DNA of 64,000 nt from an uncultured Saprospiraceae bacterium (GTDB lineage: Bacteria; Bacteroidota; Bacteroidia; Chitinophagales; Saprospiraceae): NCBI GenBank assembly GCA_964484205.1, contig CAZAEZ010000009.1, forward strand, positions 24,035 to 88,034. The letters run 5' to 3'. Below are positions 5,802-40,937 of this stretch, piece by piece (positions within the stretch are counted from its first letter, which is position 1; each line of letters opens with the position of its first letter). Made by a program: the position numbers and the translations under genes. The notes under the pieces were generated by a model. It was not told the origin of the DNA, ran no database searches, and worked only from the letters and a program-made list of their open reading frames with translations.

Positions 5802-7718
5802 TTACTGTTTGACTTCTTCAAACTCTACATCTTGCGCATCACCGGCGCCGGCGCCGCCACCGTCAGGGCCTGCGGAGGCGCCGTCGGATGTGTTGCCGCT
5901 GTCGTTGCCGGCCGACTGCGTAGCCTGGTAAATTTCCTGGCTGGCAGCATTCCAGGCCTCGGTGAGCGTCTGGGTGGCTGTGTCGATCCGGTTGAGGTCT
6001 TCGGCCTTGTGCGCTTCACGCAGGTCGCCGAGGGCTTTCTCAATCGTTTCTTTATGGTTGGCCGGCACTTTGTCGCCAAACTCCTTGAGTTGTTTTTCCG
6101 TCTGGAAAATCAGCGTATCGGCCTGGTTGAGTTTTTCCACGCGTTCGCGGGTCTGCCGGTCGGCGTCGGCATTGGCTTCCGCTTCGGCCTTCATACGGGC
6201 AATCTCTTCTTTGGAGAGGCCGGTGCTGGCTTCAATGCGGATGTTTTGCTGTTTGCCGGTGCCTTTGTCGAGTGCGGTGACCGAGAGGATACCGTTGGCA
6301 TCGATGTCGAACGTGACTTCGACCTGCGGTACGCCACGCGGCGCCGGGGGAATACCGTCGAGAATGAAGCGGCCTACCGAGCGGTTGTCGCGCGCCATCG
6401 GGCGCTCACCCTGCAGCACGTGGATTTCCACCTGCGGCTGATTGTCGGACGCCGTCGAGTAGGTTTTCATCTTTTTCGTCGGCACGGTGGTGTTGGCTTC
6501 AATCACCACGTCGTACACGCCGCCCATGGTTTCGATACCCAGCGACAACGGCGTCACGTCGAGCAGGAGCACATCGGTCACAGAACCGCTCAACACACCG
6601 CCCTGAATGGCGGCGCCTACGGCTACCACCTCGTCGGGGTTCACCGTTTTGTTCGGTTTTTTACCGAAGAACTGCTCCACAGATTCCTGAATGCGCGGGA
6701 TACGCGTGGAACCACCCACAAGGATTACCTCGTCGATATCGCTGGCCTTGAGACCGGCATCTTTGAGCGCCATGCGGCAGGGTTCCAGTGTGCGCTGCAC
6801 CAGGCTGTCGACCATTTTTTCAAAAGCGGCCCGGCTGAGTTTTTTTACCAGGTGCTTGGGCACACCGTCGACGGCGGTGATGTACGGCAGGTTGATCTCC
6901 GTTTCCTGGCCGCTGGACAGTTCAATTTTGGCTTTTTCAGCGGCTTCCTTCAGGCGTTGCAAGGCCATCGGGTCTTTACGCAGGTCTACGTTTTCTTCTT
7001 TTTTGAACTCCGAAGCGAGCCATTCGATCACCACGTGGTCAAAGTCGTCGCCACCGAGGTGGGTATCGCCGTTGGTGGATTTCACCTCAAACACACCGCC
7101 ACCCAGTTCGAGGATGGAGATATCGAAGGTACCGCCACCAAGGTCGTACACGGCGATGGTCATGTCCTTGTCGCGCTTGTCGAGGCCATAGGCAAGGGCA
7201 GCCGCGGTGGGTTCGTTCACGATGCGCTTCACATCGAGGCCGGCAATGGCGCCTGCTTCTTTGGTGGCCTGGCGCTGCGAGTCGTTGAAGTAGGCCGGTA
7301 CCGTGATCACCGCTTCGGTGACCGGTTCGCCCAGGTAGTCTTCCGCAACTTTTTTCATTTTTTGCAGCACCATGGCAGAGATTTCCTGCGGCGTGTAATT
7401 GCGCCCGTCAATCTCGACACGGCAGGTATCGTTTTCGCCTTTAACAACTTTATACGGCACCCGGTCCACTTCGCTTGTGGATTCGCTGAAGCGCATGCCC
7501 ATAAAACGTTTGATGGACGAAACGGTGCGTTTCGGGTTGGTAATAGCCTGGCGTTTGGCGGGTGCGCCGATTTTGCGCTCGCCATTGTCCAAAAAGCCGA
7601 TCACCGATGGCGTCGTGCGGGCGCCTTCGTCGTTGGCAATCACAACGGGTTCGTTACCGACCATTGCGGCCACGCAGGAGTTTGTAGTTCCTAAGTCTAT
7701 TCCTATTATTTTTCCCAT
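5802..7718 (-). CDS. dnaK: molecular chaperone DnaK (Hsp70)
   Basis: '[17 protein letters not shown]', 'DLGGGTFD' and '[14 protein letters not shown]' are Hsp70 signatures. I take the start at the internal ATG (7718) that gives the canonical [11 protein letters not shown]-terminus. Confidence 0.98.
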
Positions 7719-8135
7719 AATCTTTAAAAGTTGGTTTGTGGGTTGTGGGTTACTGGTTACTGGTTGGATGGTTAGCACGTTTGGGAATGTGCATTCAGCC
7801 CATAAATAACAATGAATGTGCCATGCGGGGAAAACCTGACGGTTTGACAGGTTTAGGTTGGCAGCGTGTGTTTTTTTGGCAGAAAATATAGGTTAACGGT
7901 GACAGAGGGACACCTGCGGCCGGTAGTGTCGTTGATTTTCCCGGTTTCGCATGGAGACAAACAGGTCACGGCGCTTTGTGTTTTTTTTCAAAACATAATT
8001 CCAAAATTTAGTGAAAATGCTCAGCCGGGTGAAACAGAATTTTCCACGGAGCCTTTAATTATTCGAAAAATAATTTTTTAGGAAACTACCGGAAGCGGAT
8101 TAAAAAAATTTTAAAATCTGATAAAAATTATCAAA

Positions 8136-8143
8136 TACATTTG
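8136..8143 (+). promoter_or_regulatory. candidate Bacteroidota -7 promoter element (TAnnTTTG)
   Basis: tacatttg lies inside an AT-rich tract, about 177 nt upstream of the 8320 start. Motif match only. Confidence 0.2.
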
Positions 8144-8319
8144 TCACCGCGCGTAAGCCTGGCATCCTCTTAACAGGCCCGCATTTTTCAAGTTTACCGG
8201 TAGCATTGAAAACAATCGCATAGCCAAAAGCGCAACAGGCTATACGGGTAAATGCTATACGCCTAATCGAAATTTCTCAACCAATTTACTTACTGTTTTT
8301 AACCAAAATCACTCTTTTC

Positions 8320-10275
8320 ATGCTGCGATCTCTATTGCTAGTACCCGCCGTAGGCCTGCTTTTGTCGGGCAGTCTTTTTTCCCAACAACGCACTTGCGCC
8401 GCTCAGGAAATGCTACTCCAGCAACTGAAAGAAAACCCGGAACTCCAGCAAACACGCGATGCCATCGAACAACACACCAAACAATTCATCAGCAAGGGCG
8501 GCGCGACCGACCGCACGGTGGTTACCATCCCGGTGGTGGTACACGTTGTTTGGAACACCACGGCTGAAAACATCAGCGACGCGCGCATCCTGGCCCAACT
8601 CCAGGTGCTCAACGACGACTTCCGCCGCCTGAATGCCGATGCCGGCAACACGCCTTCAGGCTTTCAGGGTGTGGCTGCCGACTGCGAGGTTGAATTTTGC
8701 CTGGCCCAACGCGACCCCAGCGGCAATGCGACGACGGGCATCGTGCGCCGGCAAACCACGGTCACCTCTTTCGGTACCAGCGGCAACCCGGTTAAATTTA
8801 ACAGCTCCGGCGGCAGTAATGCCTGGCCCCGCGACCAGTACCTCAACCTCTGGGTTTGCGACCTGAGCAGCGGCCTGCTGGGCTACGCTCAATTCCCGGG
8901 CGGCGGCGCCAGCACCGACGGTGTGGTATGCGATTACCTCTACTTCGGCACAACGTCTACCGGCGCCCAACCGCCCTTCGATAAAGGCCGCACGGCCACC
9001 CACGAAGTCGGGCACTGGCTCAACTGCTACCACATCTGGGGCGACGACGGCTCCTCCTGCTCCGGCACCGACCAGGTATCCGACACCCCCAACCAGGCCG
9101 ATGAAAATTACGGCTGCCCGAGCTTCCCAACGGTCAGCTGCAGCAACGGGCCCAACGGCGACATGTTTATGAACTACATGGACTACACCGACGATGCCTG
9201 TATGAATATGTTCACCGCCGGGCAAAAAGGCCGCATGCAGGCCCTTTTCGGCGCCGGTGGCTTCCGGGCGCCACTGCTTTCCTCCCTGGGCTGTGTACCG
9301 CCCGGCGGCGGTGGCGGTTGCGGCACGCCGGGCAGCCTGGCAGCAAGCAGCATCACTCAAACAAGCGCCACAGTTAGCTGGGGCTCAGTTAGCGGAGCAT
9401 CCAACTACAACCTCCAGTACAAAGTGTCCACCTCGTCTACCTGGACCACCGTTTCGGGCATTGGCGGCACCTCGTACAACCTCACGGGCCTGAGCGCCGG
9501 CACCACCTACAACTACCAGGTGCAGGCGAATTGCAGCGGCACTACCGGCTCCTACTCCGGTGCGGCTTCGTTTACCACTAGTAGCGGCGGCGGCGGTTGC
9601 AGTGACACGTACGAGTCAAACAACAGCCGTAATCAGGCAAAAACGATCCCGGTCAACCAGGCCATTCAGGCGCTGATCGGTACGTCCAGCGACAACGACT
9701 ACTTCAAGTTCAACGTCACATCCAGCGCCCGGAACATCCGGATCGATCTGACCAACCTGCCTTACGATTATGACCTGCGCTTCTACCGCAACAGCAGCCA
9801 GGTGGCTATTTCACAAAATGCAGGCACTACGCCCGAACTGATCATTTACAACAACGCCAGCACGTCATACACGTACTACCCGCGGGTGTACGGCTACAAC
9901 GGCGCATTCAGCAGTTCGCAGTGCTATACCCTGCAGGTCAGTGTCAGCAGCAGTGCATGGCGGACCGACGGCAGCACCGACGGCCAGGTAACCACCCTGG
10001 AAGTACCGGTTGACCTGGAAGTGGACGGATTTGCCATGTGGCCCAACCCGGCGATGGAACAACTCACCGTGGATGTGCCGCTGGAGCGCGACAGCGACGT
10101 ACAGTTGACCATTTTCGACGCCGCAGGCAAAGCTGCCGTGCAGCAAAACCGGAGCATGGTGAAAGGTGAAAACCGCTTCGAACTCAGCTTGCAAACGCTG
10201 CACAACGGGGTGTACTTCGTACAAGTACGCAACGGCGACCAGACGCATACGCGGAAACTGGTGGTTCAGAAATAG
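8320..10275 (+). CDS. secreted M43 (pappalysin/cytophagalysin-like) zinc metalloprotease with FN3-like and PPC-like domains and a T9SS C-terminal sorting domain
   Basis: Signal peptide. '[16 protein letters not shown]' fits HExxHxxxxxH. '[20 protein letters not shown]...YNYQVQANC' is FN3-like. The C-terminus '[13 protein letters not shown]...[22 protein letters not shown]' is typical of Por_Secre_tail. Confidence 0.85.
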
Positions 10276-11555: not shown

Positions 11556-13736
11556 ATGAAAAACGTACTTACACTGCTGTTTTTTGCCCTGCTCACTTTT
11601 TCCACCCAAGCCCAAAACAACTACGCCGAAGCCATCCAGCAAGGCGATGCCGCCCTGCGCCGCGGGCAGTACAAAACCGCGATCAACAAATATTTTGCGG
11701 CGGAGGCGTTTGACCCGTCGAAGAAGGCGGTGGTGCAGGGGAAGGTGAACAAGGCGTTTGATGCGATTGAGGGGTTGCGGCGGCAGGCGGAAAATGCGCT
11801 GAGTCAGGTAAAAGCCGAACAGGCAAAAACCAAAGAAGCGCTTCTGCAGGCTGAGCAGGCAAAAGGGGAAGCCCTGGCTGCGCAGGCCAAAACACAGGCC
11901 GCCCTGGCCAAAGCGGACAAACTGATTAATGCTTTTTACTTTTATGAAGACAAGTTTGCGCTGGCGTATAAGAACAACCGCTTTTATTTTATTGATAAAA
12001 ACGGCGATGAAATACCCAAACTCCGCCGTTGGGAAAAAGCCGAGCAGTTTGATGACAGGGGTTTCGCCAAAGTAAGCGACCGCGATAAAATTTACCTGCT
12101 GGATACCTTGGGAAACACATACCGTATTGCCTACGATGTTCAGGACCTGGAGCCGGAAGTTACCGCATTGGACCTGTCGGGCAAACGCCTCCCGGAAATC
12201 CCAGCCGTTGTTTTTCAGCATACGCAGTTGAAAATTCTATTCTTGTCGAACAACAAGTTGGAACGCTTGCCGCCACAGATCGGGAACTTGCAGGCCCTGA
12301 TCATCCTGGACTTGAATGAGAACAAACTCACGCAACTTCCGGATGAAATTGGGAGGCTAAAAAATCTAACTGCCTTAAGGGTATCAAAAAATACCCTGAA
12401 AACGCTTCCGGCCCAAATCGGGCAATTGAATCAACTGTCGGCGCTCAATTTATGGACAAACAATCTGGAAGACTTGCCACCTGAAATCGGCAACCTGTAC
12501 AACCTGGAACACTTGGATCTGGTTAACAACCAACTTGCAAGTATTCCACCGGCAATTGGAAATCTAAAGAAACTGACTGTTTTAAGTCTGTCTTTTAATG
12601 CCCTGACCACGCTGCCACTGGCGATCGGCACCTTGAGAAACCTGAAAACCCTCGACTTAACGAGCAACAAGCTGGAATATCTGCCGGATGAAATAGGCAA
12701 TCTGACTAATTTAACCCGCTTGAGAATAAGCAACAATAAATTCAACGTGCTGCCGCCGGCAATTTGCAAGTTGAAAAAATTAGTCGTACTCGACATCGGA
12801 AACAATGCACTGACTTCCCTCCCGCCGGATATCAAGGATTTGGAAAATCTGGAGGATTTGAATATTTGGAGTAACGACATCAGCAGCCTTCCGGGAGAAA
12901 TTTGTAGTTTAAACCAATTAGTCAAGTTGCAATTAGGGGCAAATCGTCTCAATGACCTGCCGGTAGAAATCGGGAATTTGCAAAATTTGGCAGTGCTCGA
13001 CCTGTGGGGAAACCCCATCGGCTATCTACCCGATCAACTTGGCGAGTTGAACCAATTAACCCAGCTTCGCCTGGCTGTAACCTCGTTTCTGGACTTTCCC
13101 AAGGCTATATCGATTATCGGAAAACTCACCAATTTGCACAATCTGAGACTCAATATTAGGGATCTGACAGCACTCCCACCCGAAATCGTTACCCTAAAAA
13201 ATCTCACCAGCCTGGACCTGGGTAACAACAACAAAATGGATATCACACAAGTATTGCTGGCCATTAAAGACCTCGATCAAATAACTGAATTAAATCTGAT
13301 CCTCAACGACTTAACCAGCCTGCCGCCTGAAATCGGCGACTTGGAGGGCTTGGAAGAATTGTATCTCGGGCACAATAGACTCACCCACCTACCCGCTGAA
13401 CTCAGTAAGCTTAAGAAACTGAACCGCCTGGATTTGAATTACAATAAAAATCTTGACTTACCAGCTGCATTAACTATCCTCCGGACGCTACCGCAATTTA
13501 CACGTTTGGATCTGGTCAATATTGACATAACAGAGCTTCCTGCCGAACTTGGGACCTTGGAGAATCTGACCAATCTTGATCTTAGTTTCATTGAAAACCT
13601 AAACCCCGGCCAGGCTCTGCAAGTTGTAAAACAACTTCCTAACCTGAAATATCTCAACCTTCAGGGCATCCCAATCCCCGAAGCCGACCGGGATGTCTTC
13701 AAACGAAGCTTGCCCCGCTGCGAAATCAACTTCTGA
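11556..13736 (+). CDS. secreted leucine-rich-repeat protein, paralog 1 (signal peptide, TPR-like hairpin, coiled-coil, WG-like repeats, about 21 LRRs)
   Basis: ATG 11556 gives 'MKNVLTLLFFALLTFSTQAQ'. A conserved module 'NNYAEAIQQGDAALRRGQYKTAINKYFAAEAFDPSKK' follows. 'FYFIDKNGDEIPKLRRWEKAEQFDDRGFAKV' is WG-repeat-like. Then come ~23-aa LxxLxxLxLxxNxLxxLPxxIGxL repeats to the C-terminus. Confidence 0.85.
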   Translation: MKNVLTLLFFALLTFSTQAQNNYAEAIQQGDAALRRGQYKTAINKYFAAEAFDPSKKAVVQGKVNKAFDAIEGLRRQAENALSQVKAEQAKTKEALLQAEQAKGEALAAQAKTQAALAKADKLINAFYFYEDKFALAYKNNRFYFIDKNGDEIPKLRRWEKAEQFDDRGFAKVSDRDKIYLLDTLGNTYRIAYDVQDLEPEVTALDLSGKRLPEIPAVVFQHTQLKILFLSNNKLERLPPQIGNLQALIILDLNENKLTQLPDEIGRLKNLTALRVSKNTLKTLPAQIGQLNQLSALNLWTNNLEDLPPEIGNLYNLEHLDLVNNQLASIPPAIGNLKKLTVLSLSFNALTTLPLAIGTLRNLKTLDLTSNKLEYLPDEIGNLTNLTRLRISNNKFNVLPPAICKLKKLVVLDIGNNALTSLPPDIKDLENLEDLNIWSNDISSLPGEICSLNQLVKLQLGANRLNDLPVEIGNLQNLAVLDLWGNPIGYLPDQLGELNQLTQLRLAVTSFLDFPKAISIIGKLTNLHNLRLNIRDLTALPPEIVTLKNLTSLDLGNNNKMDITQVLLAIKDLDQITELNLILNDLTSLPPEIGDLEGLEELYLGHNRLTHLPAELSKLKKLNRLDLNYNKNLDLPAALTILRTLPQFTRLDLVNIDITELPAELGTLENLTNLDLSFIENLNPGQALQVVKQLPNLKYLNLQGIPIPEADRDVFKRSLPRCEINF

Positions 13737-13830: not shown

Positions 13831-14970
13831 ATGCCACAAACCACCACCGCACCCCTAGCCCAGGTAAAATGGGACGATGTCCTCGACACCCTCGACGCCC
13901 AACGCTGCGTGCTCTTCCTCGGTAGCGGCGCCCTGCCCGCTCCCGGCGGCGGCCCGGTTGAAGCCGCCCTCAGCCAATGGCTCGACGCCAACAACCCCGA
14001 GCACCCGCACATCCAGGTGTACAACCCCGACGGTTTTTTGCTGCTGCGCAAACAACGCTACCGCCGCCACGTGGTGGCCGGCATGAAAGATTTTTACAGC
14101 CAGCCCTTTCCCGAGGCCGAAACGCTGTACAGCCGCATCGCCCGCCTGCCGTTTTCGATGGTGGTTACGCTTACGCCCGACAATATCCTGGCCCGCACCT
14201 TCGACGTGCTGGGGCTCGATTACCAGCCCGATTTTTACTTCCGCAACCGCAAGGCCGGCGACCAGTTTGAAAAACCCAGCCGTCAAAAACCCCTGCTCTA
14301 CAACCTCCTGGGCAACATTGAAGAGCCGGAAAGCCTCGTGCTCACCCACGGCGATTTTTTCGACTACCTCGAATCCGTCTTCCGCGGCAACAGCATGAAC
14401 CCCGAACTGAAAGACGAACTCGAAAGCATGGAACGCTACATTTTTCTCGGCCTGCCCTATGAAAAATGGTATTTCCAATTGCTGCTGCGCGTGCTCTCGT
14501 TGCACTCCGATAAACTCAAAGAGATCGAACGGCTGGCCCTGAAGGAATTTGAAGACCCCCGCCTGCACAAAATTTACACCGAGGAATTCAAGATCGAATT
14601 TTTCCCGGCCAGCGCCGAGGAGTTTATCGCCGAACTCTACCGGCGCTGCGACGCCGACGGAATGCTCAAAGCCCTGCCCGCCACCGACCCCGCCGAAGCC
14701 GGCATCCCCGATGCCACTGCCGAACAGCTCGAAAACATGCTGGCCGAAGCCAAAACCGACGAGGCCATGCTCCACCTGAAAGTGTTTCTCGACCGGCGCA
14801 AACCCCGCAGTTATACGCTGGCCAATGCACTCGTGGTACTGCGCAACCGCCGCAACCTGCTCCGCCAGCGCGAACTGCGCGGCACCATCGACTCGCGCGA
14901 CGCTTCCGTGGAAAACAACCAGATCGTTGAGCAACTTTTAGCGTTGATCGGACAAGCCAAAACCCTTTGA
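13831..14970 (+). CDS. divergent SIR2-like (SIR2_2-type) domain protein with C-terminal EAD1-like helical domain
   Basis: ATG 13831 is preferred; the 13693 start overlaps the previous gene. The order 'VLFLGSGA', 'VVTLTPDNILARTF', 'LLYNLLGNIEEPESLVLTHGDFFDY', 'IFLGLPYEKWYF' matches the SIR2_2 block order. The C-terminal 'ALVVLRNRRNLLRQRELRGTIDSRDASVENNQIVEQLLALI' matches the effector-associated-domain pattern as I remember it. Confidence 0.65.
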   Translation: MPQTTTAPLAQVKWDDVLDTLDAQRCVLFLGSGALPAPGGGPVEAALSQWLDANNPEHPHIQVYNPDGFLLLRKQRYRRHVVAGMKDFYSQPFPEAETLYSRIARLPFSMVVTLTPDNILARTFDVLGLDYQPDFYFRNRKAGDQFEKPSRQKPLLYNLLGNIEEPESLVLTHGDFFDYLESVFRGNSMNPELKDELESMERYIFLGLPYEKWYFQLLLRVLSLHSDKLKEIERLALKEFEDPRLHKIYTEEFKIEFFPASAEEFIAELYRRCDADGMLKALPATDPAEAGIPDATAEQLENMLAEAKTDEAMLHLKVFLDRRKPRSYTLANALVVLRNRRNLLRQRELRGTIDSRDASVENNQIVEQLLALIGQAKTL

Positions 14971-16721
14971 ACGCCATGGAAAACGATACGAAAAAACAAT
15001 CCACTCCGTACCGCTACCCCGGCGTTACGCCGTTCACCACCGAGCAAAGCAGCATCTTCTTCGGTCGCCAGCGCGATACCGACGAGCTCTACCGCCTTAT
15101 CCGCCGCGAGCCGCTGGTGGTGCTCTACGGTAAAAGCGGTCTGGGAAAAAGCTCGCTCATCAATGCCGGCATCATCCCCCGCTGCCGGGAAGAGGGCTCC
15201 CACAGTCCGATCATTGTGCGCTTCGGAGCCTGGACGGAGGGCGAATCCACCACGCCCCTCGAAGCCACCAAAATTGCGCTCACCGGCGGCAAAAAAGCCG
15301 AAACCTTTCTCGACCGCCTGCTACCCGATGACAACGCACTCTGGGCCTGCGCCAAAAGCCGCCAACTGGCCGCCACGGATGTCCAGGCGCGTCCGCTCCT
15401 GCTGTTCGACCAGTTTGAAGAATTGTTCAGTTACCCGGAAGCGGAAATCGCCGCCTTTCTCAGCGACCTGGTCGAGTTGCTCAACACCGGCATTCCCCTG
15501 CGTTTTCGCCGCATGGCCGAATCCGACGACACACTGACCGATGCCGACGAGGAGCGCCTCGAAGCGCCGCTGGATGCCCGCATTGTGTTTGCCATCCGCT
15601 CCGACCGCATGCACCTGCTCGACCGGCTAAAAGACCACCTGCCCATGGTGCTGCGCCATACCTTTGAACTCAAGGCGCTGTCGCAAAAAGACGCTACCGA
15701 TGCCATCGTGGAACCGGCACGCGCTGCGGGTGATTTCGCTACGGAAACGTTTGAATTCAGTCCGGAAGCCCTCACGGCCCTGCTGACCTACCTCGCCGAC
15801 GAGCAGGACAAGGAAGGCCGCGTGGAAGGTATTCTGCTCCAGATGCTTTGCGAACATTACGAACGCAAGCTGGTCGGCGGCAAGGGCCTGCGCCGGCTCG
15901 AACAGCAGCACACCGGCAACCCCGACCAGGTGGTGCAGCAGTATTACGAAGAAAAAATACAGGTTTTGCCCGCCGACCAGCAGTTGCCCGCCCGCCGCCT
16001 GATCGAAGACGGCCTGGTGTCGGAAGGCGAAGCCATGCGCCTCAGCCTGCACGAGAGTTTTATCATCCAGGAGTTTGGCGCCGAAAAAACCTTGCTCGAG
16101 CAGTTGGTCGACAGCCGCCTGCTGCGCTCCGAACCCTTCCTGCGCGGGGGCTATACCTACGAGCTCTCCCACGACCGCCTGGTGCCGCCTGTGCTCAAAG
16201 CCCGCAGCCAGCGCCGCGAAGAGGAAGCCCGCCTCGAAGCTGCGCGCCTCGAAACGGAGCGCCAGCGCAAGCTTGAAGAAGCGCAGCGGCAGGCCGAGCA
16301 GGAGCGGCAGTTGCGTCAGCAAGCCCAGGCCGGCGAGCGCCGCGCGCGGCAACGCACCCGGTTGGCGGCCGGGGTGTCGGCAGTGGCGCTGGTGCTGGCG
16401 GCGGTGGCTTTTTGGAGTTATTCGGAGGCCCAGCGGAATGCGAAGTTGGCTACAGAAAAAAGTGAAGAGGCGGAGGCCAGCCGAAAGCGGACAGAGGAGG
16501 CTTTGAAGCAGTCTAACCGGTTTTTAGCCAAGTCGGATAAACTCAATTTTGAAAATCTTGAAGGCCGGGTCCGTGTTATTTTGAATGGACGACTTTGCCC
16601 CCCCGAAAAATGGCTCATCGAAATGCAGGAAATTACCGGACGGCATCCCGATAGCCTTCAATTAAAAATACGATTGCAGGAACTTCAGACACTTCGTAAT
16701 CAAAACCCGGATTGCAGATGA
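14967..16721 (+). CDS. nSTAND-type P-loop NTPase with C-terminal coiled-coil, single TM helix and 101-aa tail (no repeat sensor)
   Basis: 'PYRYPGVTPFTTEQSSIFFGRQRDTDEL'. Walker A 'LYGKSGLGKSSLINAGIIP' (nt 15129-15155). Walker B-like 'LLLFDQFEELF'. An R/E/Q-rich coiled-coil. TM helix 'LAAGVSAVALVLAAVAFW' (~16362-16418). TTG 14967 overlaps the upstream TGA (14968-14970); an alternative ATG is at 14976. Confidence 0.8.
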   Translation: MNAMENDTKKQSTPYRYPGVTPFTTEQSSIFFGRQRDTDELYRLIRREPLVVLYGKSGLGKSSLINAGIIPRCREEGSHSPIIVRFGAWTEGESTTPLEATKIALTGGKKAETFLDRLLPDDNALWACAKSRQLAATDVQARPLLLFDQFEELFSYPEAEIAAFLSDLVELLNTGIPLRFRRMAESDDTLTDADEERLEAPLDARIVFAIRSDRMHLLDRLKDHLPMVLRHTFELKALSQKDATDAIVEPARAAGDFATETFEFSPEALTALLTYLADEQDKEGRVEGILLQMLCEHYERKLVGGKGLRRLEQQHTGNPDQVVQQYYEEKIQVLPADQQLPARRLIEDGLVSEGEAMRLSLHESFIIQEFGAEKTLLEQLVDSRLLRSEPFLRGGYTYELSHDRLVPPVLKARSQRREEEARLEAARLETERQRKLEEAQRQAEQERQLRQQAQAGERRARQRTRLAAGVSAVALVLAAVAFWSYSEAQRNAKLATEKSEEAEASRKRTEEALKQSNRFLAKSDKLNFENLEGRVRVILNGRLCPPEKWLIEMQEITGRHPDSLQLKIRLQELQTLRNQNPDCR

Positions 16722-16804
16722 AACTGTTTTCTGTTCTATTGATCGTTATTGGAATTTCCGGGTTGGCCCAGGCCCAAAACAACTACACCCTGGTTATCCT
16801 GTAG
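16718..16804 (+). pseudogene. orphan 28-codon signal-peptide remnant of the LRR paralog family
   Basis: ATG 16718 overlaps the NTPase stop (ATGA). It translates as 'MKLFSVLLIVIGISGLAQAQNNYT' then 'LVIL' and a stop. The 24-nt stretch cccaggcccaaaacaactacaccc is identical to the LRR3 5' region, and homology ends abruptly after it. Confidence 0.55.
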
Positions 16805-16898
16805 AGCAGCCCTATCCTTCGGTCGAAGGGGAAAAGCCGGCAACGTCTCCCAAATTTCAGAATCGGATTCTACCAAAACACCCCTAACTTTACAGGAC

Positions 16899-17204
16899 AT
16901 GAAAAATCCACCAACAGCCCAAGACTTCAGCAACTATCTTTTCTGGGATGTAGAAAAGAGCAAAATCGACTTTGACAAAAGCAAAGCCTACGTCATAGAG
17001 CGGGTGCTATCGCATGGCATGTTGACGGATTGGGATATGCTTAAAATAGTCTATGGCAAAGAAATTATTCGGGAGGTGGTTTTAAATTTACGTCATCTAG
17101 ACAAATATGCCCTGCATTTCTGCGCGGCCTATTTTGACGTACCACTCGAAAATTTCAGATGCTACAACTACGCGCAATCGAACCCCGTACACTGGGACTT
17201 CTAA
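16899..17204 (+). CDS. small conserved partner (putative antitoxin) of the AbiEii-type nucleotidyltransferase
   Basis: 101 aa from ATG 16899 ('MKNPPTAQDFSNYLFWDVEKSKIDFDKSKAYVIERVLSHGMLTDWDMLK'). It overlaps the downstream toxin gene by 46 nt. The role is assigned from position and recollection of similar Bacteroidota pairs. Confidence 0.55.
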   Translation: MKNPPTAQDFSNYLFWDVEKSKIDFDKSKAYVIERVLSHGMLTDWDMLKIVYGKEIIREVVLNLRHLDKYALHFCAAYFDVPLENFRCYNYAQSNPVHWDF

Positions 17205-17773
17205 AGGCATTGATGCAAGAGTCCGTCTTAGCTGATAATTTTTTAGTTGGCGGTACGGCATTGGCACTTCAATTGGGACACCGACTTTCTGTTGATCTGG
17301 ATTTATTTACCCATACGCCTTTTAGTGCTGAGGACCTGCTTGAAAAATTGCGCGAAAAATTTACGGTCCAACCACTTACAGTAACCAACACGATTTTTAT
17401 TGCCGTCATCGAAGGCATCAAGGTGGACTGCGTTCGGTTTAAGTATCCATTTGCTTTTCCAATTTTGGATACCGACGGTATCCGTTTTGCTGACATCCGG
17501 GATATTGCGGCAATGAAATTAGACGCTGTCGCTAAACGCGGAACCAAGAAAGATTTTATTGACATGTATTACTTGTTTGAGCGCTTTTCGCCTGCTCAAA
17601 TCCTGGAATGGTATGAGCAGATGTTTCAGCATTCGACAAGCTTGCATGTTATTCGAAGCCTGACCTACTTTGAGGATGCAGAGCAAACCGAAATGCCCGT
17701 CGTATTCGATAAAAAAACAACATGGGCCGCAGTTAAAAGTCGGATGGTCAACGTTGTCAGAAATAATTTTTAG
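17159..17773 (+). CDS. nucleotidyltransferase AbiEii/AbiGii toxin-family protein
   Basis: 'LVGGTALALQLGHRLSVDLDLF' (NTase G-x / DxD region) and 'DIAAMKLDAVAKRGTKKDFIDMYYL' are typical of the AbiEii (DUF1814) family. Confidence 0.75.
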   Translation: MLQLRAIEPRTLGLLKALMQESVLADNFLVGGTALALQLGHRLSVDLDLFTHTPFSAEDLLEKLREKFTVQPLTVTNTIFIAVIEGIKVDCVRFKYPFAFPILDTDGIRFADIRDIAAMKLDAVAKRGTKKDFIDMYYLFERFSPAQILEWYEQMFQHSTSLHVIRSLTYFEDAEQTEMPVVFDKKTTWAAVKSRMVNVVRNNF

Positions 17774-17777
17774 CAAC

Positions 17778-19301
17778 ATGAAGAAACTAACTGCCATGCT
17801 TTTTCTCGCCGTCCTGGCTTTCGCTGCCCAGGCCCAAAACAACTACTCCCAAGCCATCCAGCAAGGCGATGCCGCCCTGCGCCGTGGGGAATACAAAACG
17901 GCGATAAAAAAATACTTCGCGGCAGAGGCGTTCGATCCGTCGAAAAAGGATGTGGTGCAGCGGAAGGTGGAGGTTGCGTTTGACAAGATTGAGGCGCTGC
18001 GGGTGGAAGCGGAGCGGGCAAAAACAGAGGCTAAAGTTGCCTTGCAAAAGGCAGATAAACTCATAAATGCATTTTACTTCTATGCCGACCGGTTCGCATT
18101 GGCATTTAAGGCTGGTCAGTTTTACTTCATTGACAAAAATGGCGATGAAATTGAAATGCTTGGTCGTTGGGGAAAGGCAGAACAATTTGACTATGACGGG
18201 TTTGCAAAAGTTAGTGACAACAATACAACCTATTTGCTCGATACACTGGGCAATAAATTTCCGGCAGCATTTGATGTAAAAGATTTAAAGTCTGGAATAC
18301 TGGCATTGGATTTATCACACAAGGAATTAACAGAATTCCCCAAAGAAGTTTTTCAGCATAAACAGCTAAAGATTTTGCGATTGGGATTATGCAAATTGAC
18401 GCAACTGCCGGCGGAAATAGGGGTAATGAAAAGTTTGATTCGTTTAGATTTGGGAGGTAATAAATTGACGAGTTTGCCCCCGGCAATCGGACAATTGGAA
18501 AATTTAATCACGTTGCAGTTGAACTATAACGCCTTGACTTCTTTGCCCAACGAAATAGGGGGTTTAAAAAACTTAAGCACCCTGGATCTAAGAAATAATC
18601 AACTGCAACGTCTCCCCGAAGGATTTAAAGCGTTGGGGAAATTGCGTGCACTGGATTTGAGTATCAACCAGCTATCCAGTTTTCCAGTCGAAATATTAGG
18701 GTTAAAAAATTTACTCTTATTGGATTTGAGCGTCACCAAACTGCGTGATCTGCCCACCCAAATCAACAACTTGGAAAACTTATCATCGTTGGATTTAGGT
18801 TCTAATGCATTAACCAGCTTACCGGCTGAAATTGGAGGTCTGAAAAATTTACGCACTCTGGACCTATTCGAAAACCAATTGGGCAGCCTGCCGGCTCAAA
18901 TTGGGTTATTATCAAACCTGACATACTTAGGGTTAAATAGGAACCAGCTGATGTCTCTGCCTGCCGATATCGGGAAACTAAAAAATTTAACGGAACTGGA
19001 TTTGTTTGGAAATCCATTGAAAACATTGCCGCCACAAATTGGCGCATTAAAAAACCTGCGGAATCTGGATTTGGGGGGGTGTAAGCTTAGCCGTATTCCA
19101 CCGGAGATCGGAGGGGCAACAAACCTGGTCAGTCTAAATTTAATTTTTAATGAATTAACCAGCCTTCCTGAACAAATAGGGAACCTTAAAAATCTAAAGG
19201 AATTGTTTCTGAATGAAAACTATTTCCCGGATACAGAACTGGCAAAAATCAAGCGCCGCTTACCGGCCTGTGATATTAGTAGCTACCCGTTTACAGAGTA
19301 G
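17778..19301 (+). CDS. secreted leucine-rich-repeat protein, paralog 2
   Basis: ATG 17778 lies 4 nt after the AbiEii stop and gives 'MKKLTAMLFLAVLAFAAQAQ'. It has the same N-terminal module, WG-like repeats and about 14 LRRs. It ends 'AKIKRRLPACDISSYPFTE'. Confidence 0.85.
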   Translation: MKKLTAMLFLAVLAFAAQAQNNYSQAIQQGDAALRRGEYKTAIKKYFAAEAFDPSKKDVVQRKVEVAFDKIEALRVEAERAKTEAKVALQKADKLINAFYFYADRFALAFKAGQFYFIDKNGDEIEMLGRWGKAEQFDYDGFAKVSDNNTTYLLDTLGNKFPAAFDVKDLKSGILALDLSHKELTEFPKEVFQHKQLKILRLGLCKLTQLPAEIGVMKSLIRLDLGGNKLTSLPPAIGQLENLITLQLNYNALTSLPNEIGGLKNLSTLDLRNNQLQRLPEGFKALGKLRALDLSINQLSSFPVEILGLKNLLLLDLSVTKLRDLPTQINNLENLSSLDLGSNALTSLPAEIGGLKNLRTLDLFENQLGSLPAQIGLLSNLTYLGLNRNQLMSLPADIGKLKNLTELDLFGNPLKTLPPQIGALKNLRNLDLGGCKLSRIPPEIGGATNLVSLNLIFNELTSLPEQIGNLKNLKELFLNENYFPDTELAKIKRRLPACDISSYPFTE

Positions 19302-19368: not shown

Positions 19369-20769
19369 ATGAAATTAATATCCTGTCTCCTGTTTTTATT
19401 TTTCCTGCCGCTCGCTGCCCAGGCCCAAAACAACTACACCCAGGCCATCCAGCAAGGCGATGCCGCCCTGCGCCGGGGTGAATACAAAACGGCGATAAAA
19501 AAATACTTCGCGGCGGAGGCCTTTGATCCCTCGAAAAAGGATGTGGTGCAGCGGAAAGTGGAAGTGGCGTTTGACAAGATTGAGGCGCTGCGGGTGGAAG
19601 CGGAGCGGGCATTTAAGCAGGTGAAGGCAGAGCAGGAGAAAACGCAGGCGGCTTTGGACAGGGCCGACAAACTGGTGGAGGCCTTTTATTTCTATGCCGG
19701 GCGCTTTGCGCTGGCTTACAACGATTACCACTACTATTTCATAGACAAAAATGGAAACCCGATAGAAAAACTGGGCTATTGGGATCAGGCCGGACAATTT
19801 ACCAATGAAGGCTTTGCCCGTGTTTCACCCTATGATGTGGACACCATTGTAACACGGGATACAACTACGTATGAAGAGCGCGTACAAATCCTACGGAATT
19901 CATCCTTAGACTATTTTTTAATAGACACGACAGGTAAAAAATACCTGGTTTCCACCGATGAGCCGGAGAAAGAGCCCGGCATTGCTGCGCTGGGTTTTAG
20001 TTTTAATCAGTTGAAGGAGTTTCCGGAAAAAATATTCAATTATCCCGCGCTTGAAATATTGGAGATCAATGGCAATGAAATCGAAAAAATTCCACCACAA
20101 ATTGGAACACTCAAACAGCTCCGGTTTTTATACCTGAGTCAAAACAACATAAACTCCCTGCCACCTGAAATTGGCGAATTAATCGATCTGGAACGCCTGT
20201 ATTTAAAAGGTAATGATTTGACAACCCTTCCTATAGAACTGGGCCGGTTAACCAAGTTAAAAATATTGGATTTAACGAATAACCCTGTACACGAAAGTGA
20301 AGTTGAGAAAATCCGGAAATTACTGCCTGACTGCCTGATTCGGGGCGGGTATTCGTTCGGAGCAATTTCCAGTCTGTATTGGAGTTCGAAGCGCTTTCGG
20401 GAAGCCTATGATTATATGAAAAAAGATCTCGAGGAAAAGGAGTATGCGTCTGATAACTGGTACGATTGGGAAACCTGGAGCTGGCGGGCAATGCATGCCG
20501 CGAAATATGAAGAAGCAATCCTGTATGCTCAAAAAGCCCTCGAGGTTAACTTTTTGGCAGAAGGTGTGCTCTCCTATCTTGCCCTCGGCTATCTGCTAAA
20601 CAACCAATGGCCTGAAGCCGAAAAAATTTATTTAAAATGGAAAGGGCGCTTTTGTCAGGGTACTTTTAAATACTGCGACAGGATTTTTTTGGAAGACATC
20701 GCCAAACTCGAAGCCGCCAACATCACCCACCCCGATTTTGAAAAAGTGCGGCAGCTATTCAAAAAATAG
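19369..20769 (+). CDS. secreted leucine-rich-repeat protein, paralog 3 (few LRRs plus W/Y-rich TPR-like C-terminal domain)
   Basis: 'MKLISCLLFLFFLPLAAQAQ' from ATG 19369 (alternative ATG 19339). The N-terminal module is identical in protein sequence to paralog 2 over ~54 aa. About 4 LRRs follow, then 'YEEAILYAQKALEVNFLAEGVLSYLALGYLLNNQWPEAEKIYLKW'. Confidence 0.8.
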   Translation: MKLISCLLFLFFLPLAAQAQNNYTQAIQQGDAALRRGEYKTAIKKYFAAEAFDPSKKDVVQRKVEVAFDKIEALRVEAERAFKQVKAEQEKTQAALDRADKLVEAFYFYAGRFALAYNDYHYYFIDKNGNPIEKLGYWDQAGQFTNEGFARVSPYDVDTIVTRDTTTYEERVQILRNSSLDYFLIDTTGKKYLVSTDEPEKEPGIAALGFSFNQLKEFPEKIFNYPALEILEINGNEIEKIPPQIGTLKQLRFLYLSQNNINSLPPEIGELIDLERLYLKGNDLTTLPIELGRLTKLKILDLTNNPVHESEVEKIRKLLPDCLIRGGYSFGAISSLYWSSKRFREAYDYMKKDLEEKEYASDNWYDWETWSWRAMHAAKYEEAILYAQKALEVNFLAEGVLSYLALGYLLNNQWPEAEKIYLKWKGRFCQGTFKYCDRIFLEDIAKLEAANITHPDFEKVRQLFKK

Positions 20770-20776
20770 ATTCAAC

Positions 20777-20893
20777 CACCACGGAGGCACGGAGCACACG
20801 GAGATTTTTCTCCTAAGAAAAAAGCAAAAATCCTGTCAATCCTGTCCAACTCAAAAAACCGCCAAAGTCGCCCCTCCTCCATGCCTCCGTAGT
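20777..20893. repeat. family A palindromic intergenic element, copy 2 (degenerate right arm)
   Basis: caccacggaggcacggagcacacggagat ... ctccatgcctccgtagtg, between convergent stops (20769 and 20903). Confidence 0.8.
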
Positions 20894-20902
20894 GAAAAAA
20901 AA

Positions 20903-21373
20903 CTACCGCCCCACCTCCTGCATATCCGAATAATAAATCAACTCCCACTCATCATTAAACTGCTTCATAAAACGCCGTTCCAGGCCATAGTTGGCCGCGG
21001 CATACCGAATGCGCTCGATGATCAGCTCATCGCTCAACACTTCCCAACTCCGTTTAAACTCGCTCGTGCTGAAATCCACCGGGCGGTGCATGACCCAGTC
21101 TTTGGGTTCCCAGGAAGTGGCGCGTTTCATCTGGTGCGTGCTGTCGACGGCAAACGACGCGTCGCCTTGCAGCGGCCAGGCGATATGCGCCATTTGGTAG
21201 AGGCTGTCGCGGTGAAATTTTTGATAAAACTCCATAAAATCCGAGGGCAGCTTCACCTCGGCGGCCTGCGTGGTTTGGGCCGCCTGATCGGGTATATTGG
21301 CGGAGGAAGGTGTTTGGTTGCGGCAGGCAAACAGGCCGGCCAGGGCAAGGAAAATCAATAGCGTACGCAGCAT
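20903..21373 (-). CDS. lipoprotein, DUF4348-like
   Basis: ATG 21373 gives 'MLRTLLIFLALAGLFAC' (lipobox). 'DFMEFYQKFHRDSLYQMAHIAWPL' resembles the DUF4348 family as I recall it. Confidence 0.6.
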   Translation of the reverse strand: MLRTLLIFLALAGLFACRNQTPSSANIPDQAAQTTQAAEVKLPSDFMEFYQKFHRDSLYQMAHIAWPLQGDASFAVDSTHQMKRATSWEPKDWVMHRPVDFSTSEFKRSWEVLSDELIIERIRYAAANYGLERRFMKQFNDEWELIYYSDMQEVGR

Positions 21374-21476: not shown

Positions 21477-21842
21477 ATGAAAGGCCTCGCCACCATTGCC
21501 CTGCTCCTGCTTTCCAACGTGTTCATGACCTTTGCCTGGTACGGGCACCTGCGTTTTCAACACCTGTCTTTTTTTCAAAAAACCGGCCTCTTCGGCATCG
21601 TGCTGGCCTCCTGGCTGATCGCTTTTTTGGAGTATTGTTTCATGGTGCCGGCCAACCGCATGGGCTACCTCGGCAACGGCGGCCCCTTCACACTCGTCCA
21701 GCTCAAGGTGATCCAGGAAGTGATCACCCTGCTGGTTTTCACGCTGTTCACCCTTGTTTTTTTCAAAAATGAGCCCCTGAAATGGAACCATTTCGTCGGC
21801 TTTATCTTCCTCGTGTTGGCCGTTTATTTTATCCGGAAATAA
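21477..21842 (+). CDS. DMT-superfamily small membrane protein (DUF486-like)
   Basis: 'NVFMTFAWYGHLRF', 'FLEYCFMVPANRMGY' and 'QLKVIQEVITLLVF'. Four predicted TM helices. ATG 21477 is preferred over TTG 21468. Confidence 0.75.
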   Translation: MKGLATIALLLLSNVFMTFAWYGHLRFQHLSFFQKTGLFGIVLASWLIAFLEYCFMVPANRMGYLGNGGPFTLVQLKVIQEVITLLVFTLFTLVFFKNEPLKWNHFVGFIFLVLAVYFIRK

Positions 21843-21868
21843 CGAACTTAGCCGCAAACAACCCAAAC

Positions 21869-24800
21869 ATGCCACCGTCCACCGACCTGAACATCACCAT
21901 CATCTCCGCCGGCGCCGGCAGCGGCAAAACCTACACGCTCACCCAACGCATGGTGGCGCTGATGCAATCGGGCGTCCGCGCGCGGGGGATCATGGCTACC
22001 ACCTTCACCCAAAAAGCCGCCGCCGAACTACAGGAGCGCGTGCGCGCCCGCTTGCTCGAAACCGGCATGACGGAGGCCGCCAACGACCTCGGCAATGCGC
22101 TTATCGGCACGGTGCACAGCATCGGCGTGCGGCTGCTCCAGCGCTTCGCCTTCGAACTCGGCGTATCGCCACTGGTGGAGATCATCGCCGACGGCGACCA
22201 GCAGCGCATGTTCAACGAATCGCTCGCGCAGGTCCTCCACGAAGACCGCATCGCCACCATCAACCAACTGGCCGACCGGCTCGGGCTCACCAAAAAAACC
22301 GACCGCGACCCCTACGACTGGCGCCGCGACATCCGCGACATCACCGACGTGGCCCGCGCCAACAACTTCGAGCGGGCGGTTTTGGAAAAAAGCAAAAAAC
22401 TGTCCTGGGAAACTTTCGAGCAAATGCTCGGCCCCGCCGGTACCGACTCGGCCCAAACCTGGCACAACCGCCTGCTGAGCCATATCGACCAAACCGTCGC
22501 CGCCCTCGAAGCCAACGAAGCCGACGAAACCAAAACGACCCGCAACGCCATCGAAGACCTCCGCAACCTGCAAAACCAACTCAAGTGGCGTGGCGAACTC
22601 TACTGGCACGAATGGGTCAAGATCAGCAAGTTGTCGGTGGCCGTCAAAAGCCGCGACCTGTTCGAAGAACTCAAGGAGTTTGCCCGCAGCCACGACCGGC
22701 ACCCGCAGTTCCGGAGCGATATCCGCAATTTTATCGAGCACATCTTCGACTGCGCCATTGATGCCCTGACCGAGTATGAGCATTACAAGAAAAAACGCGG
22801 CCTGATCGACTACACCGACATGGAAACCTACGTGAGCCGCCTGCTCCGCATGGAACCCGTGCGGGCTGCCCTGCGCGGTGAACTGGACCTCCTGCTCGTC
22901 GATGAATTTCAGGACACCTCCCCCATCCAACTCGATATTTTCCTGCAACTCAGCCGCCTGGCCCGCCACTCCATCTGGGTCGGCGACCCCAAGCAAAGCA
23001 TCTACGGTTTTCGCGGCGCCGAACCCGCACTCATGCAGGCCATCATCCAGGCTACCGGCGGCGTGCAGCCCGAAAACGTGCTGGGCAAATCGTGGCGCAG
23101 CCGCCCGGACATCGTGTACACCGTGAACGCCATTTTTACCCGGGCATTCCCGGACTTGCCGGTGGAGCAGGTGGCTTTGGAACCGGCAAACCCCACCCCC
23201 GGCCCCTCCCCCCGGGGGGAGGGGGGCTCGCTCTCATCTTCTGCTGATGTTTCTGTGTCCGGTAGTCAACAAGCTTCCTTGTTTACGGAAGAACCACAAA
23301 AAAATCCAACCCAATCCACCGACCAAAACTCTGCCAGAGGGCAAGCCCCCCTCCCCCCGGGGGGAGGGGCCGGGGGTGGGGTCCTCCACTGGCACTTCCA
23401 AAACGAACTCGACCTCCGAAAAGTCCCCGGCAGCCCCTGGATGGAAAACTGTATCGCCGCCCGCATCCGGGTGCTGCTCGACCGGCAGACCCCCGTGTGG
23501 AACAAAAAACGCGACACCAGCCGTCCGGCCCGACCCGGCGACATCGCGGTGCTTTGCCGGACCAACTACGGCTGCGACGCTATGGCCGAGGCGCTCCACC
23601 GCGCGGGCCTGAAAGCCGCCATTGCACGGGCGGGCCTGCTCGAAACCCGGGAGGGCAAACTGGCGTTGGCCTGCCTCAAATACCTGCTTAATCCCTCCGA
23701 TGCCCTGAGCACCGCGGAAATTCTTACCCTCACCGGCGCCCTTAGCCTGGAGGAACTCGTCGATAGCCGGATCGACTACCTGGTTACACTCCAGGAGGGC
23801 TGGGACCCCGGCCGCTGGGCCACGGAGCACGATTTTATCCGCCGCCTCATGGACCTCCGGCCGCGCACCGCCGACCTGAGTGCCTCCGAAATTCTCAACC
23901 TGGCACTCGACGAACTGGACCTCCGCCGCCTGGCTGCCCGCTTCGGCAATGTGGCCCAGCGGCTCGACAACCTCGACCGCCTGCGCTACTACGCCCTCGA
24001 ATACGAATCGGCCTGCCAGCGCTTGCACGCTGCGGCCTCCCTGGGCGGTTTTTTGCTTTGGCTCGACGAACTGGCCCGCAGCGGGCAAGACCTTCAGGGC
24101 AGCGGCGAAAGCCCCGACGCTGTGCAGGTGCTCACCTACCACAAAAGCAAGGGGCTGGAGTTTCCCATCGCCATTTGCCACAACCTGAACAACACCCTCC
24201 GGGAAAAAGTGTGGGGCGTCAACCTCGTCGCCGAACGGGACGAACCCGATCTGGAGGATATTCTCGGCCACCGCTGGTTGCGCTTTTGGGTAAATCCGTA
24301 CAGCGACCAGTGGCGCGGCACCCCGCTCCAGGAAACCCTGGAAAGCAGCGATGTTTGGGCGGAAGCCTCCAAACAGGCCCGGGAAGAGGAAGCCCGCCTG
24401 CTCTACGTGGGCCTTACCCGCGCCCGCGATTACCTCGTTTTCCCAACCAATGTCAAAGGCACGCCCTGGCTCAACCGCGTGTTCAACGCCGGCAATGGCG
24501 AGATCAACACCCTCGAACCCGATAGCGACGAGACGCCGTTTATCTGGAAAAACCAGGTGGTGTACTGCGAAAACGAGCCGCTGTTCATGCCCGTGGATTT
24601 TCCGGAAGACCAATCGGTGGAAACCACCGTGCCCTTCCATCCGCCGCATGCCGGCAAACACCACCTCGACCGCCTGCCGTACCGCATCGACCTGCTGAAC
24701 GAATGGCCGCCCGGGTTTGATTACAACCTCGAAGAACCACAGGCTTTTTCCAACTGGCTGGAATTTCGCGGCGAGTACACCCCGGCGATCAACAAGGCCG

Positions 24801-32211: not shown

Positions 32212-32256
32212 TGGGTTGAATTTGTTCCGAAAGTTAGCAATTTAGCGCCATACCGT

Positions 32257-39281: not shown

Positions 39282-39453
39282 AGATGTCTCCCTCCGGTCG
39301 ACATGACAACGTATAGGCTGGCAATTTTTTTATCAGGTTTCTCGCTACGCTCGAAACTTCAACTGTGCTTGGGGAAGTTTTGAGCGTAGCGAGAAACCTG
39401 TTTGACTGTTTTGTTATCAATGTATTGTCATGTCGACCGGAGGGAGACATCTG
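39282..39453. repeat. family B nested-palindrome element, copy 2
   Basis: agatgtctccctccggtcgacatgacaa ... caggtttctcgctacgctcgaaac ... gagcgtagcgagaaacctg ... ttgtcatgtcgaccggagggagacatctg. It ends 29 nt before ATG 39483. Confidence 0.9.
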
Positions 39454-39482
39454 CAGAAATCTTTAAAAAATTCCCATCTCCC

Positions 39483-40880: not shown

Positions 40881-40937
40881 TATGCGTACGGAGTTTTCTA
40901 TTTTTGCGCACATTTATAACCATTCCGCTTTCACGCT

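Follow-up and report, generated by a model that had tools for sequence, protein, structure and literature searches.

What does a STAND NTPase sense, and through which partner, when nothing but a tail of about a hundred residues follows its single transmembrane (TM) helix? The question is raised by a gene in a 64,000-nucleotide stretch of DNA from an uncultured Saprospiraceae bacterium (NCBI GenBank assembly GCA_964484205.1, contig CAZAEZ010000009.1, positions 24,035 to 88,034), which as a whole is called here the window. On one strand, and in this order, the window carries a gene for a leucine-rich repeat (LRR) protein (LRR1), a SIR2_2+EAD11 gene, the NTPase gene, a DUF6922 + AbiEii pair, and two further LRR genes (LRR2 and LRR3). 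We propose that the NTPase is probably the membrane hub of a split STAND (NLR-like) conflict system, in which separately secreted sensors would dock on the tail of the hub and drive the SIR2-EAD11 effector. That the NTPase and the LRR proteins work as a pair is supported indirectly, by gene order, by the complementarity of split and fused forms, and by matched classes of two small modules: the tail itself and a tetratricopeptide repeat (TPR)-like N-terminal module, termed here NTPR, that follows the signal peptide of the sensors. The candidate contact on the LRR side is this NTPR, and not the coiled coil with an 'ADKL' motif that a first-pass annotation, made from the DNA sequence alone, had put forward.

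The open reading frame (ORF) at nucleotides 14967-16721 was read in that annotation as an nSTAND NTPase, and a Pfam match to nSTAND1 (PF20703) of 135.6 bits against a cut-off of 27.1 (4.5e-39, residues 14-438 of 581) bears this out. The Walker A motif GKSGLGKSS (residues 55-63, nt 15129-15155) and the Walker B motif LLLFDQFEE (residues 144-152, nt 15396-15422) are intact, and both are invariant or nearly so across 74 homologues. An AlphaFold2 model of the full-length protein, built on the alignment of these 74 sequences, reaches a predicted local distance difference test (pLDDT) score of 91.1; according to AlphaFold2 and Foldseek it has a nucleotide-binding domain followed by helical and winged-helix domains, a fold of the ORC/Cdc6-STAND type, and its core resembles Orc1/Cdc6, Apaf-1, ZAR1, NLRC4, NLRP3, CED-4 and MalT with a Foldseek probability of 1.00. 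Searches with the NTPase sequence returned a single marginal match in the PDB (Arl13B, E 0.007) and, in PADLOC, nothing beyond a P-loop-level match to mad8 (E 4e-4). The first-pass annotation also had the gene begin at TTG 14967 and hence translationally coupled to the SIR2 gene. This TTG does overlap the SIR2 stop codon (TGA 14968-14970), but it is an improbable start and was rejected: an identical 581-residue protein in the database (P0001) and all close homologues begin at the equivalent of ATG 14976, and the spacer between the SIR2 stop codon and this ATG is a constant 5 nt in close homologues. The two genes are tightly packed and do not overlap.

The topology of the protein can be predicted from the segment beyond the core. 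A stretch rich in R, E and Q (residues 413-465; 15 R, 11 E and 10 Q per 53 residues) leads into the TM helix, and in the model residues 400-537 (numbered from the ATG) form a near-continuous helix with its sole break at 467-469, two short helices coming afterwards. The charged coiled coil (about 16215-16355), the hydrophobic helix (about 16362-16418) and the 101-residue tail of the first-pass annotation were all recovered, the first two with slightly different limits (Table 1) and the last at exactly that number of residues after the TM helix. From the basic residues that flank the helix N-terminally, the NTPase is predicted to be cytoplasmic and the tail to lie outside, and the K/R counts (five before the helix, three after) fit this N-in/C-out orientation. 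A TM helix lies 30-80 residues past the NTPase core in almost all of the best 120 relatives. In the window NTPase the tail alone follows this helix, whereas fused homologues have a sensor domain in the same polypeptide; the label 'sensor-less', given in the first-pass annotation, is therefore right for the polypeptide and wrong for the system, in which sensors appear to have genes of their own.

The fused homologues bear on what the window NTPase works with. A homologue search of 5.8 billion proteins yielded 1039 relatives of the NTPase, which differ in what comes after the TM helix: a short tail of 65-135 residues (of a Cys or a TPR-like type), an FGE-sulfatase (FGS) domain, a coiled coil with WG repeats and LRRs (CC-WG-LRR), or other large domains. 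Full-length STAND-TM-CC-WG-LRR proteins, for which a search had been suggested, do exist, and five were found (P0026, P0029, P0037, P0058 and P0084). In P0029 (966 residues), the part before the TM helix (residues 9-433) shares 63% identity with the window NTPase, while residues 457-966 are 47% identical (E 2e-125) to LRR1, from 'ALAKADKL' through the WG repeats and LRRs to the ...LPxCEIxF C-terminus; one protein thus covers both partners in order, as in a Rosetta-stone fusion. By comparison with the split pair, P0029 is without exactly three elements, namely the tail, the signal peptide and the NTPR. The fusion that the first-pass annotation had postulated as ancestral is therefore real as an architecture, but the tail of the window NTPase is not its remnant.

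The split and the fused forms exclude each other in gene order. We retrieved 160 loci, 80 from GTDB genomes and 80 from metagenomes, and compared all their stop-to-stop ORFs with hidden Markov models (HMMs) built for this analysis. In 132 of 155 non-identical relatives the gene immediately upstream of the NTPase encodes a SIR2 protein. Complementarity was counted over TM-bearing NTPases that were complete and had 500 nt or more of sequence downstream (n=116). Where the tail has 125 residues or fewer, a same-strand gene encoding a signal peptide and an NTPR abuts the NTPase gene downstream in 43 of 53 cases and is found elsewhere in the locus in 5 more; where it exceeds 250 residues (the fused form), none of the 40 NTPases has an abutting NTPR gene (Fisher test without correction for phylogeny, p = 3.5e-17). 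The gaps between NTPase and sensor genes are mostly -60 to +40 nt, with ATGA overlaps among them. Every NTPR protein starts with a signal peptide, and the downstream ones continue into WG-LRR (10), FGS (2) or domains of 400-1800 residues without assignment (29). For the tail type of the window NTPase, here called the Cys-tail, 10 of 11 independent loci have an NTPR-sensor gene beside the NTPase gene (L002, L015, L061, L086, L089, L092, L100 and L165 among them, and L004 with an insertion between), the exception being L003. Homologues that end in the same way without an LRR neighbour, which the first-pass annotation had named as a sign against any link, are thus not the general case. A search of the 5.8 billion proteins with the NTPR profile gave 4 short proteins; all 3 that were looked up adjoin nSTAND1 genes, numbers too few for a reverse-association statistic.

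In the window itself the NTPase gene is parted from the sensor genes downstream by the cassette that encodes a DUF6922 protein and an AbiEii-family nucleotidyltransferase. This cassette is an insertion and not part of the system. Directly at the NTPase stop codon a stump of a sensor gene persists (16718-16804), whose ATG (16718) overlaps the stop codon TGA (16719-16721) as ATGA, and whose first residues, MKLFSVLLIVIGISGLAQAQNNYT, correspond to a signal peptide and the first residues of an NTPR. An intact sensor gene with the same ATGA overlap is present in L165, which has an NTPase 94% identical and the same tail, and in L089; the cassette is absent there. In L001 and L004, with NTPases 85% identical, a gene for an IS200-type Y1_Tnp transposase occupies the same junction. 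Taken together, the ATGA-coupled stump and the intact genes in L165 and L089 indicate that the separation of the NTPase and LRR genes in the window is secondary: an ancestral ATGA-coupled sensor gene was truncated at about nt 16790 by the AbiEii cassette, and three intact sensor genes remain nearby. As to the cassette, DUF6922 and AbiEii form a toxin-antitoxin-like pair, and the AbiEii ORF is short (204 residues) and may be truncated.

The tails and the NTPR modules are matched in class as well as in presence. None of the 13 NTPR modules in Cys-tail loci contains a cysteine, and all 51 in loci with cysteine-free tails contain a pair, with the first cysteine immediately preceding the module and the second within 'xC[ND]P', so that the class of the tail predicts that of the NTPR in 64 of 64 sensors. 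The rule extends to sensors that are not adjacent to the NTPase gene (LRR1 of the window, upstream of SIR2; those of L028, L032 and L044; the second and third sensors of L015 and L089), and it is independent of sensor type, with WG-LRR, FGS and other proteins in both classes. In a neighbour-joining tree of the NTPase cores the tail classes are scattered, with 7 changes by Fitch parsimony and 6-7 in 100 bootstraps; the core from L005 is 70% identical to that of the window NTPase, yet this locus has the other tail class and, with it, the other NTPR class. Sensor paralogues within a locus have a median identity of 81% in the NTPR against 49% elsewhere, and the NTPR is the more similar part in 16 of 17 pairs, which marks it as the constant part of the sensors. 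Between LRR2 and LRR3, the 60 codons of the NTPR differ by 10 synonymous changes and 1 non-synonymous change, while the signal-peptide DNA just upstream is 55% identical; this combination points to purifying selection and not to recent conversion.

The tail that would receive the sensors has two invariant cysteines (nt 16596-16598 and 16713-16715; C61 and C100 in tail alignment A1), in the contexts ...GGCP... and ...NPNC-end. AlphaFold2 models it with a pLDDT of 94.8 as helices 4-57 (a stalk of 54 residues), 64-76 and 80-96. The C-terminal 181 residues of the NTPase gave only noise against Pfam at E values up to 10, and the tail model gave nothing at E<1 against PDB folds in Foldseek; an assignment of the Cys-tail as a TPR was dropped, as it has no PDB fold match at E<1. 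Profile comparison shows homology of the Cys-tail with the short tails that lack cysteine in other members of nSTAND1 (hhalign 96%, E 3e-9). Against the NTPR, hhalign gave nothing for the Cys-tail (0.4%) and a weak resemblance for the non-Cys tails (34% over 35 TPR-like columns); with at most 34%, a common origin of tails and NTPR is not claimed. On the strength of the model and its alignment, the Cys-tail is a genuine conserved domain with a compact predicted fold, and no remnant. Two observations concern exchanges around it. The juxtamembrane segment AGWQYFEADKAKQ is near-identical in the LRR-fused P0026 and in the Cys-tail proteins P0013 and P0014, which suggests recombination inside the helix after the membrane. 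The last ~96 residues of LRR3 (window 20479-20766) are 52% identical (E 6e-24) to the tail of the nSTAND1 protein P0048, and the LRR3 C-terminus is another module common to sensors and hub tails.

How, then, is the association of NTPase and LRR proteins to be explained? The first-pass annotation saw an echo between the tail and the ends of the LRR coiled coils, a shared 'A-L-x-K/R-A/S-D-K-L' stretch, and offered two possibilities: a tail homologous to the LRR coiled-coil/WG N-modules and left by gene fission, or coiled-coil pairing of the two. The letters are present: FLAKSDKL in the tail (nt 16521-16544) agrees at 6 of 8 positions with ALAKADKL in the LRR proteins, which otherwise read ALQKADKL and ALDRADKL. 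The charged helix after the membrane does, moreover, continue into KADKLINAFYFY in the fused proteins, and AGWQYFEADKAKQ is common to the fused P0026 and the Cys-tail proteins P0013 and P0014. The similarity is nevertheless not above chance. BLASTP of the tail against the LRR N-module gave E 0.10 with a 7-residue gap, and the profile-profile comparison that the annotation had recommended (a 14-member tail alignment against a 9-member CC/WG N-module alignment) gave 1.8% over 5 columns. Homologues of the tail read AAKSRLEF, AAKERIKF or AAKALLEF in the same columns, which confines the 'ADKL' match to the window NTPase. Since the motif is not kept, and since the tail has a distinct predicted fold and belongs to the family of nSTAND1 short tails, a degenerate LRR module or a pairing through the ADKL coiled coils is very improbable. 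Only a slight chance, likewise, is left to a fortuitous neighbourhood, in which a two-gene module of SIR2 and nSTAND1 would merely lie close to LRR proteins of the ordinary secreted or surface kind found in Saprospiraceae, and the tail would be a functionless stub. Other genes do lie between the window LRR genes and the NTPase, and the two-gene module stands alone in L003; but the separation in the window is secondary, adjacency recurs in 43 of 53 short-tail loci across many genera, and a conserved tail with invariant cysteines and a high-confidence predicted fold is not what a stub would look like. The adjacency counts and the stump already largely refute this explanation.

Our preferred reading is the split receptor. 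The secreted sensors would use their NTPR to attach to the tail of the NTPase in the periplasm, and one hub would serve several interchangeable sensors, three in the window. A periplasmic ligand, a phage component or another invader-derived molecule, would then cluster or re-orient the stalks; clustering would bring about NTP-dependent oligomerisation of the cytoplasmic STAND modules, and the oligomer would activate the co-transcribed SIR2-EAD11 protein, with degradation of NAD+ and growth stop or cell death as the outcome. A fusion protein, mutual exclusivity of split and fused forms, and matched classes are together what is expected of one receptor divided into two chains that re-associate. 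An operon of the same composition could also function without any docking of NTPR on tail, which we regard as unlikely. The short-tail NTPase would then be itself a membrane or periplasm sensor, or a membrane-tethered switch, and the NTPR proteins would act in parallel, for example as decoys, titrated inhibitors or co-regulated effectors or adhesins, the NTPR being an oligomerisation or sorting module. This alternative draws on the NTPR-like units found inside the fused tails of L039, L041, L064 and L115, where docking in trans would be needless, on the short-tail NTPases without an NTPR neighbour (L003, L097, L098, L102 and L121), and on the weakness of the TPR-like resemblance between tail and NTPR. 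Against it stand the fusion protein P0029, the counts of 0 in 40 against 43 in 53, which form the pattern of one function spread over two chains, and the matching of classes, which holds in 64 of 64 sensors despite 6-7 switches and differing sensor types and would be difficult to account for without contact between the two modules.

Several observations weigh against the split receptor and are set out here together. L003, a locus with the same tail in a complete genome of 8.9 Mb, has no NTPR gene within 10 kb, and none was found in the short-tail loci L097, L098, L102 and L121. The locus counts are not phylogenetically independent. An NTPR-like unit lies between the TM helix and the sensor in the fused proteins of L064, L039 and L041, and others are inside some fused or mid-length tails, that of L115 included; the NTPR may accordingly have a role other than docking. 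The DNA encoding tail and NTPR is adjacent, so that class matching could in part be co-inheritance of one recombination block, an explanation countered by only about 10 distal sensors. EAD11, through which a homotypic link to the SIR2-EAD11 protein would be expected, was found on the window NTPase neither by Pfam nor by our own EAD11 HMM. A role in defence is inferred from family context, and no PADLOC model fits the NTPase, the SIR2 protein or the LRR proteins.

The effector gene upstream of the NTPase encodes SIR2_2 (nt ~14179-14508; Pfam 1.3e-6) and EAD11 (nt ~14716-14955; Pfam 4.4e-16) domains; PADLOC and PDB sequence searches with its protein gave no match. The window holds no further EAD11 protein in its 64 kb. 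Scanning of the other loci with our EAD11 HMM found extra EAD11 ORFs in L009, L030, L042, L043, L060, L063 and L067 and no TM-type NTPase, the sole NTPase matched being a SIR2-EAD11 fusion in L043. There (7360-9705) an nSTAND1 core and SIR2-EAD11 share one polypeptide without a TM helix, encoded directly upstream of a TM-type nSTAND1. The three LRR proteins of the window, for which PADLOC gave no match, all have classical signal peptides with an AQAQ end. In LRR1 our own HMMs detect the NTPR (nt 11613-11792) at 1e-26, the WG repeats at 5e-46 and the LRRs at 4e-97. The NTPR consensus reads QNNYxxAIQQGDAALRRGxYKTAIxKYFAAEAFDPSKK..., with a weak Pfam match to TPR_11 (E 0.004).

Table 1. Positions in the window of the NTPase gene, its parts and its neighbours.
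Feature	Position	Strand	Description and basis
LRR1	11556..13736	+	signal peptide MKNVLTLLFFALLTFSTQAQ, NTPR, coiled coil, WG repeats, LRR array; Pfam LRR_14 1.9e-61
SIR2-EAD11 effector gene	13831..14970	+	likely start ATG 13831, 379 aa; orthologues 379-382 aa
NTPase gene	14976..16721	+	nSTAND1 NTPase, 581 aa from ATG 14976; identical 581-aa protein P0001 in database
STAND NTPase core, cytoplasmic	15015..16289	+	Pfam nSTAND1; AlphaFold2; Foldseek
R/E/Q-rich stalk helix, cytoplasmic, leading into membrane	16203..16361	+	composition; part of modelled helix 400-466
TM helix, single, predicted N-in/C-out	16362..16415	+	LAAGVSAVALVLAAVAFW; Kyte-Doolittle mean 2.14; RRARQRTR flank on N side
Cys-tail (101 aa)	16416..16718	+	stalk helix and two-helix hairpin; AlphaFold2, tail alignment
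Sensor-gene stump	16718..16804	+	28-codon ORF MKLFSVLLIVIGISGLAQAQNNYTLVIL with stop; begins MKLFSVLLIVIGISGLAQAQNNYT, frame broken at nt ~16790
DUF6922 protein and AbiEii-family nucleotidyltransferase cassette	16749..17773	+	Pfam DUF6922 1.3e-17, AbiEii 4.4e-17; PADLOC AbiEii 1e-9
LRR2	17778..19301	+	signal peptide, NTPR (17835-18014), coiled coil, WG, LRR; Pfam, own HMMs
LRR3	19369..20769	+	signal peptide, NTPR (19426-19605), coiled coil, WG, short LRR; Pfam, own HMMs

Beyond LRR3 the window has a 207-residue ORF (20738-21361) that overlaps the end of LRR3 and is without a Pfam or PADLOC match, followed by a 1156-residue UvrD/REP-type helicase (21782-25252). On the minus strand, 25629-26963 encodes a 444-residue protein that joins a 2Fe-2S ferredoxin, an adenylate/guanylate cyclase and a globin, an unusual architecture for a redox- or gas-sensing cyclase. 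Large ORFs of 832, 725 and 498 residues at 31201-33699, 33886-36063 (minus strand) and 39417-40913 (minus strand) have no Pfam match at E<=1e-4. Among the retrieved loci, L128-L162, from soil and peat metagenomes and at ~30% identity, have after the TM helix an ectodomain of ~600-700 residues that is matched by no HMM built here, most with an upstream SIR2. In L164 (4586-7535) many short ORFs hold pieces of nSTAND1, an NTPR ORF and pieces of WD40/beta-propeller; the locus represents a system that has become pseudogenised or else an assembly rich in errors, and it suggests that the NTPR can also head beta-propeller sensors.

Arrangements of this general kind are familiar from eukaryotes. In Toll-like receptors, and in plant LRR receptor-like proteins with SOBIR1/BAK1, an extracytoplasmic LRR sensor signals over one TM helix to a cytoplasmic death or immunity module, and receptor/co-receptor as well as sensor/helper NLR pairs have separable sensing and signalling chains, with several sensors per hub. 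Eukaryotic NLR NTPases are, however, cytosolic and not membrane-coupled to extracellular LRRs. The likeness of the window system to eukaryotic LRR receptors is a functional analogy only, and it would imply no homology beyond the LRR and STAND folds. TPR-like hairpins, too, resemble the modules described here with a difference, in that each NTPR and each tail is a single hairpin and not a repeat array.

Among bacterial systems the closest are those built on nSTAND1, a family named by Kaur, Iyer, Burroughs and Aravind (eLife 2021, PMC8195603), whose account of NTPase-FGS systems has the lectin domains sensing inside the cell. The supplementary tables of that paper list 412 'nSTAND1+TM...' architectures, for example 'TIR+DrHyd-> nSTAND1+TM+BetaPropeller' and 'CASPASE+nSTAND1+TM*-> SIG+Pentapeptide->', and have EAD11 on LRR+AP-GTPase+COR proteins of Haliscomenobacter. 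The window shares with these systems a PF20703 NTPase, an effector gene upstream of it, FGS or repeat proteins as presumed sensors, and EAD11 on the effector; by contrast, TM topology, short-tail forms, secreted sensors acting in trans and an N-terminal adaptor are not discussed in the main text of PMC8195603. With systems coupled by effector-associated domains (EADs), whose principle was set out in eLife in 2020 (PMC7159879), it has in common the EAD of its SIR2-EAD11 effector, whereas its NTPase has no matching EAD. The Avs families and bacterial NACHT proteins (Kibby et al., bioRxiv 10.1101/2022.07.19.500537) likewise bring together a STAND core, a sensor of repeat or lectin type and an effector that kills the cell, SIR2 in some families; TM-type bacterial NACHT proteins are mentioned in the same paper as possible signal sensors. 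The Avs and NACHT proteins are nevertheless each one polypeptide, in which a cytoplasmic sensor binds phage proteins, whereas the window has separate genes for effector, switch and sensor, with export of the last. A search of one library of papers found none on short-tail hubs with secreted sensors, on an NTPR adaptor, or on split/fused complementarity.

In the bacterial STAND/NLR-like defence proteins characterised so far, the sensor is covalently attached and recognises phage proteins within the cell. Here the STAND switch is, by its predicted topology, wired to the outer side of the cytoplasmic membrane, and many genomes encode the sensor as a protein of its own with an export signal. If docking is true, invaders would be detectable before or during the crossing of the envelope; the abundant 'sensor-less' nSTAND1+TM entries of existing catalogues would be explained; and a small adaptor pair would let one hub use several fast-diversifying sensors, a logic otherwise found in the receptor/co-receptor systems of plants and animals. 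The model also yields a testable pair of domains, of ~100 and ~60 residues, with natural cognate and non-cognate classes. As a broader and more tentative proposal, the periplasm of some Bacteroidota may be under a surveillance akin to innate immunity, in which interchangeable secreted sensors (LRR, C-type-lectin-like FGS, beta-propeller or other) plug into a STAND hub through co-evolving tail-NTPR adaptors and so fire a SIR2 NADase. Were this so, the EAD principle would have a counterpart outside the cytoplasm, and this would be the first NLR-type switch known that detachable extracellular receptors drive.

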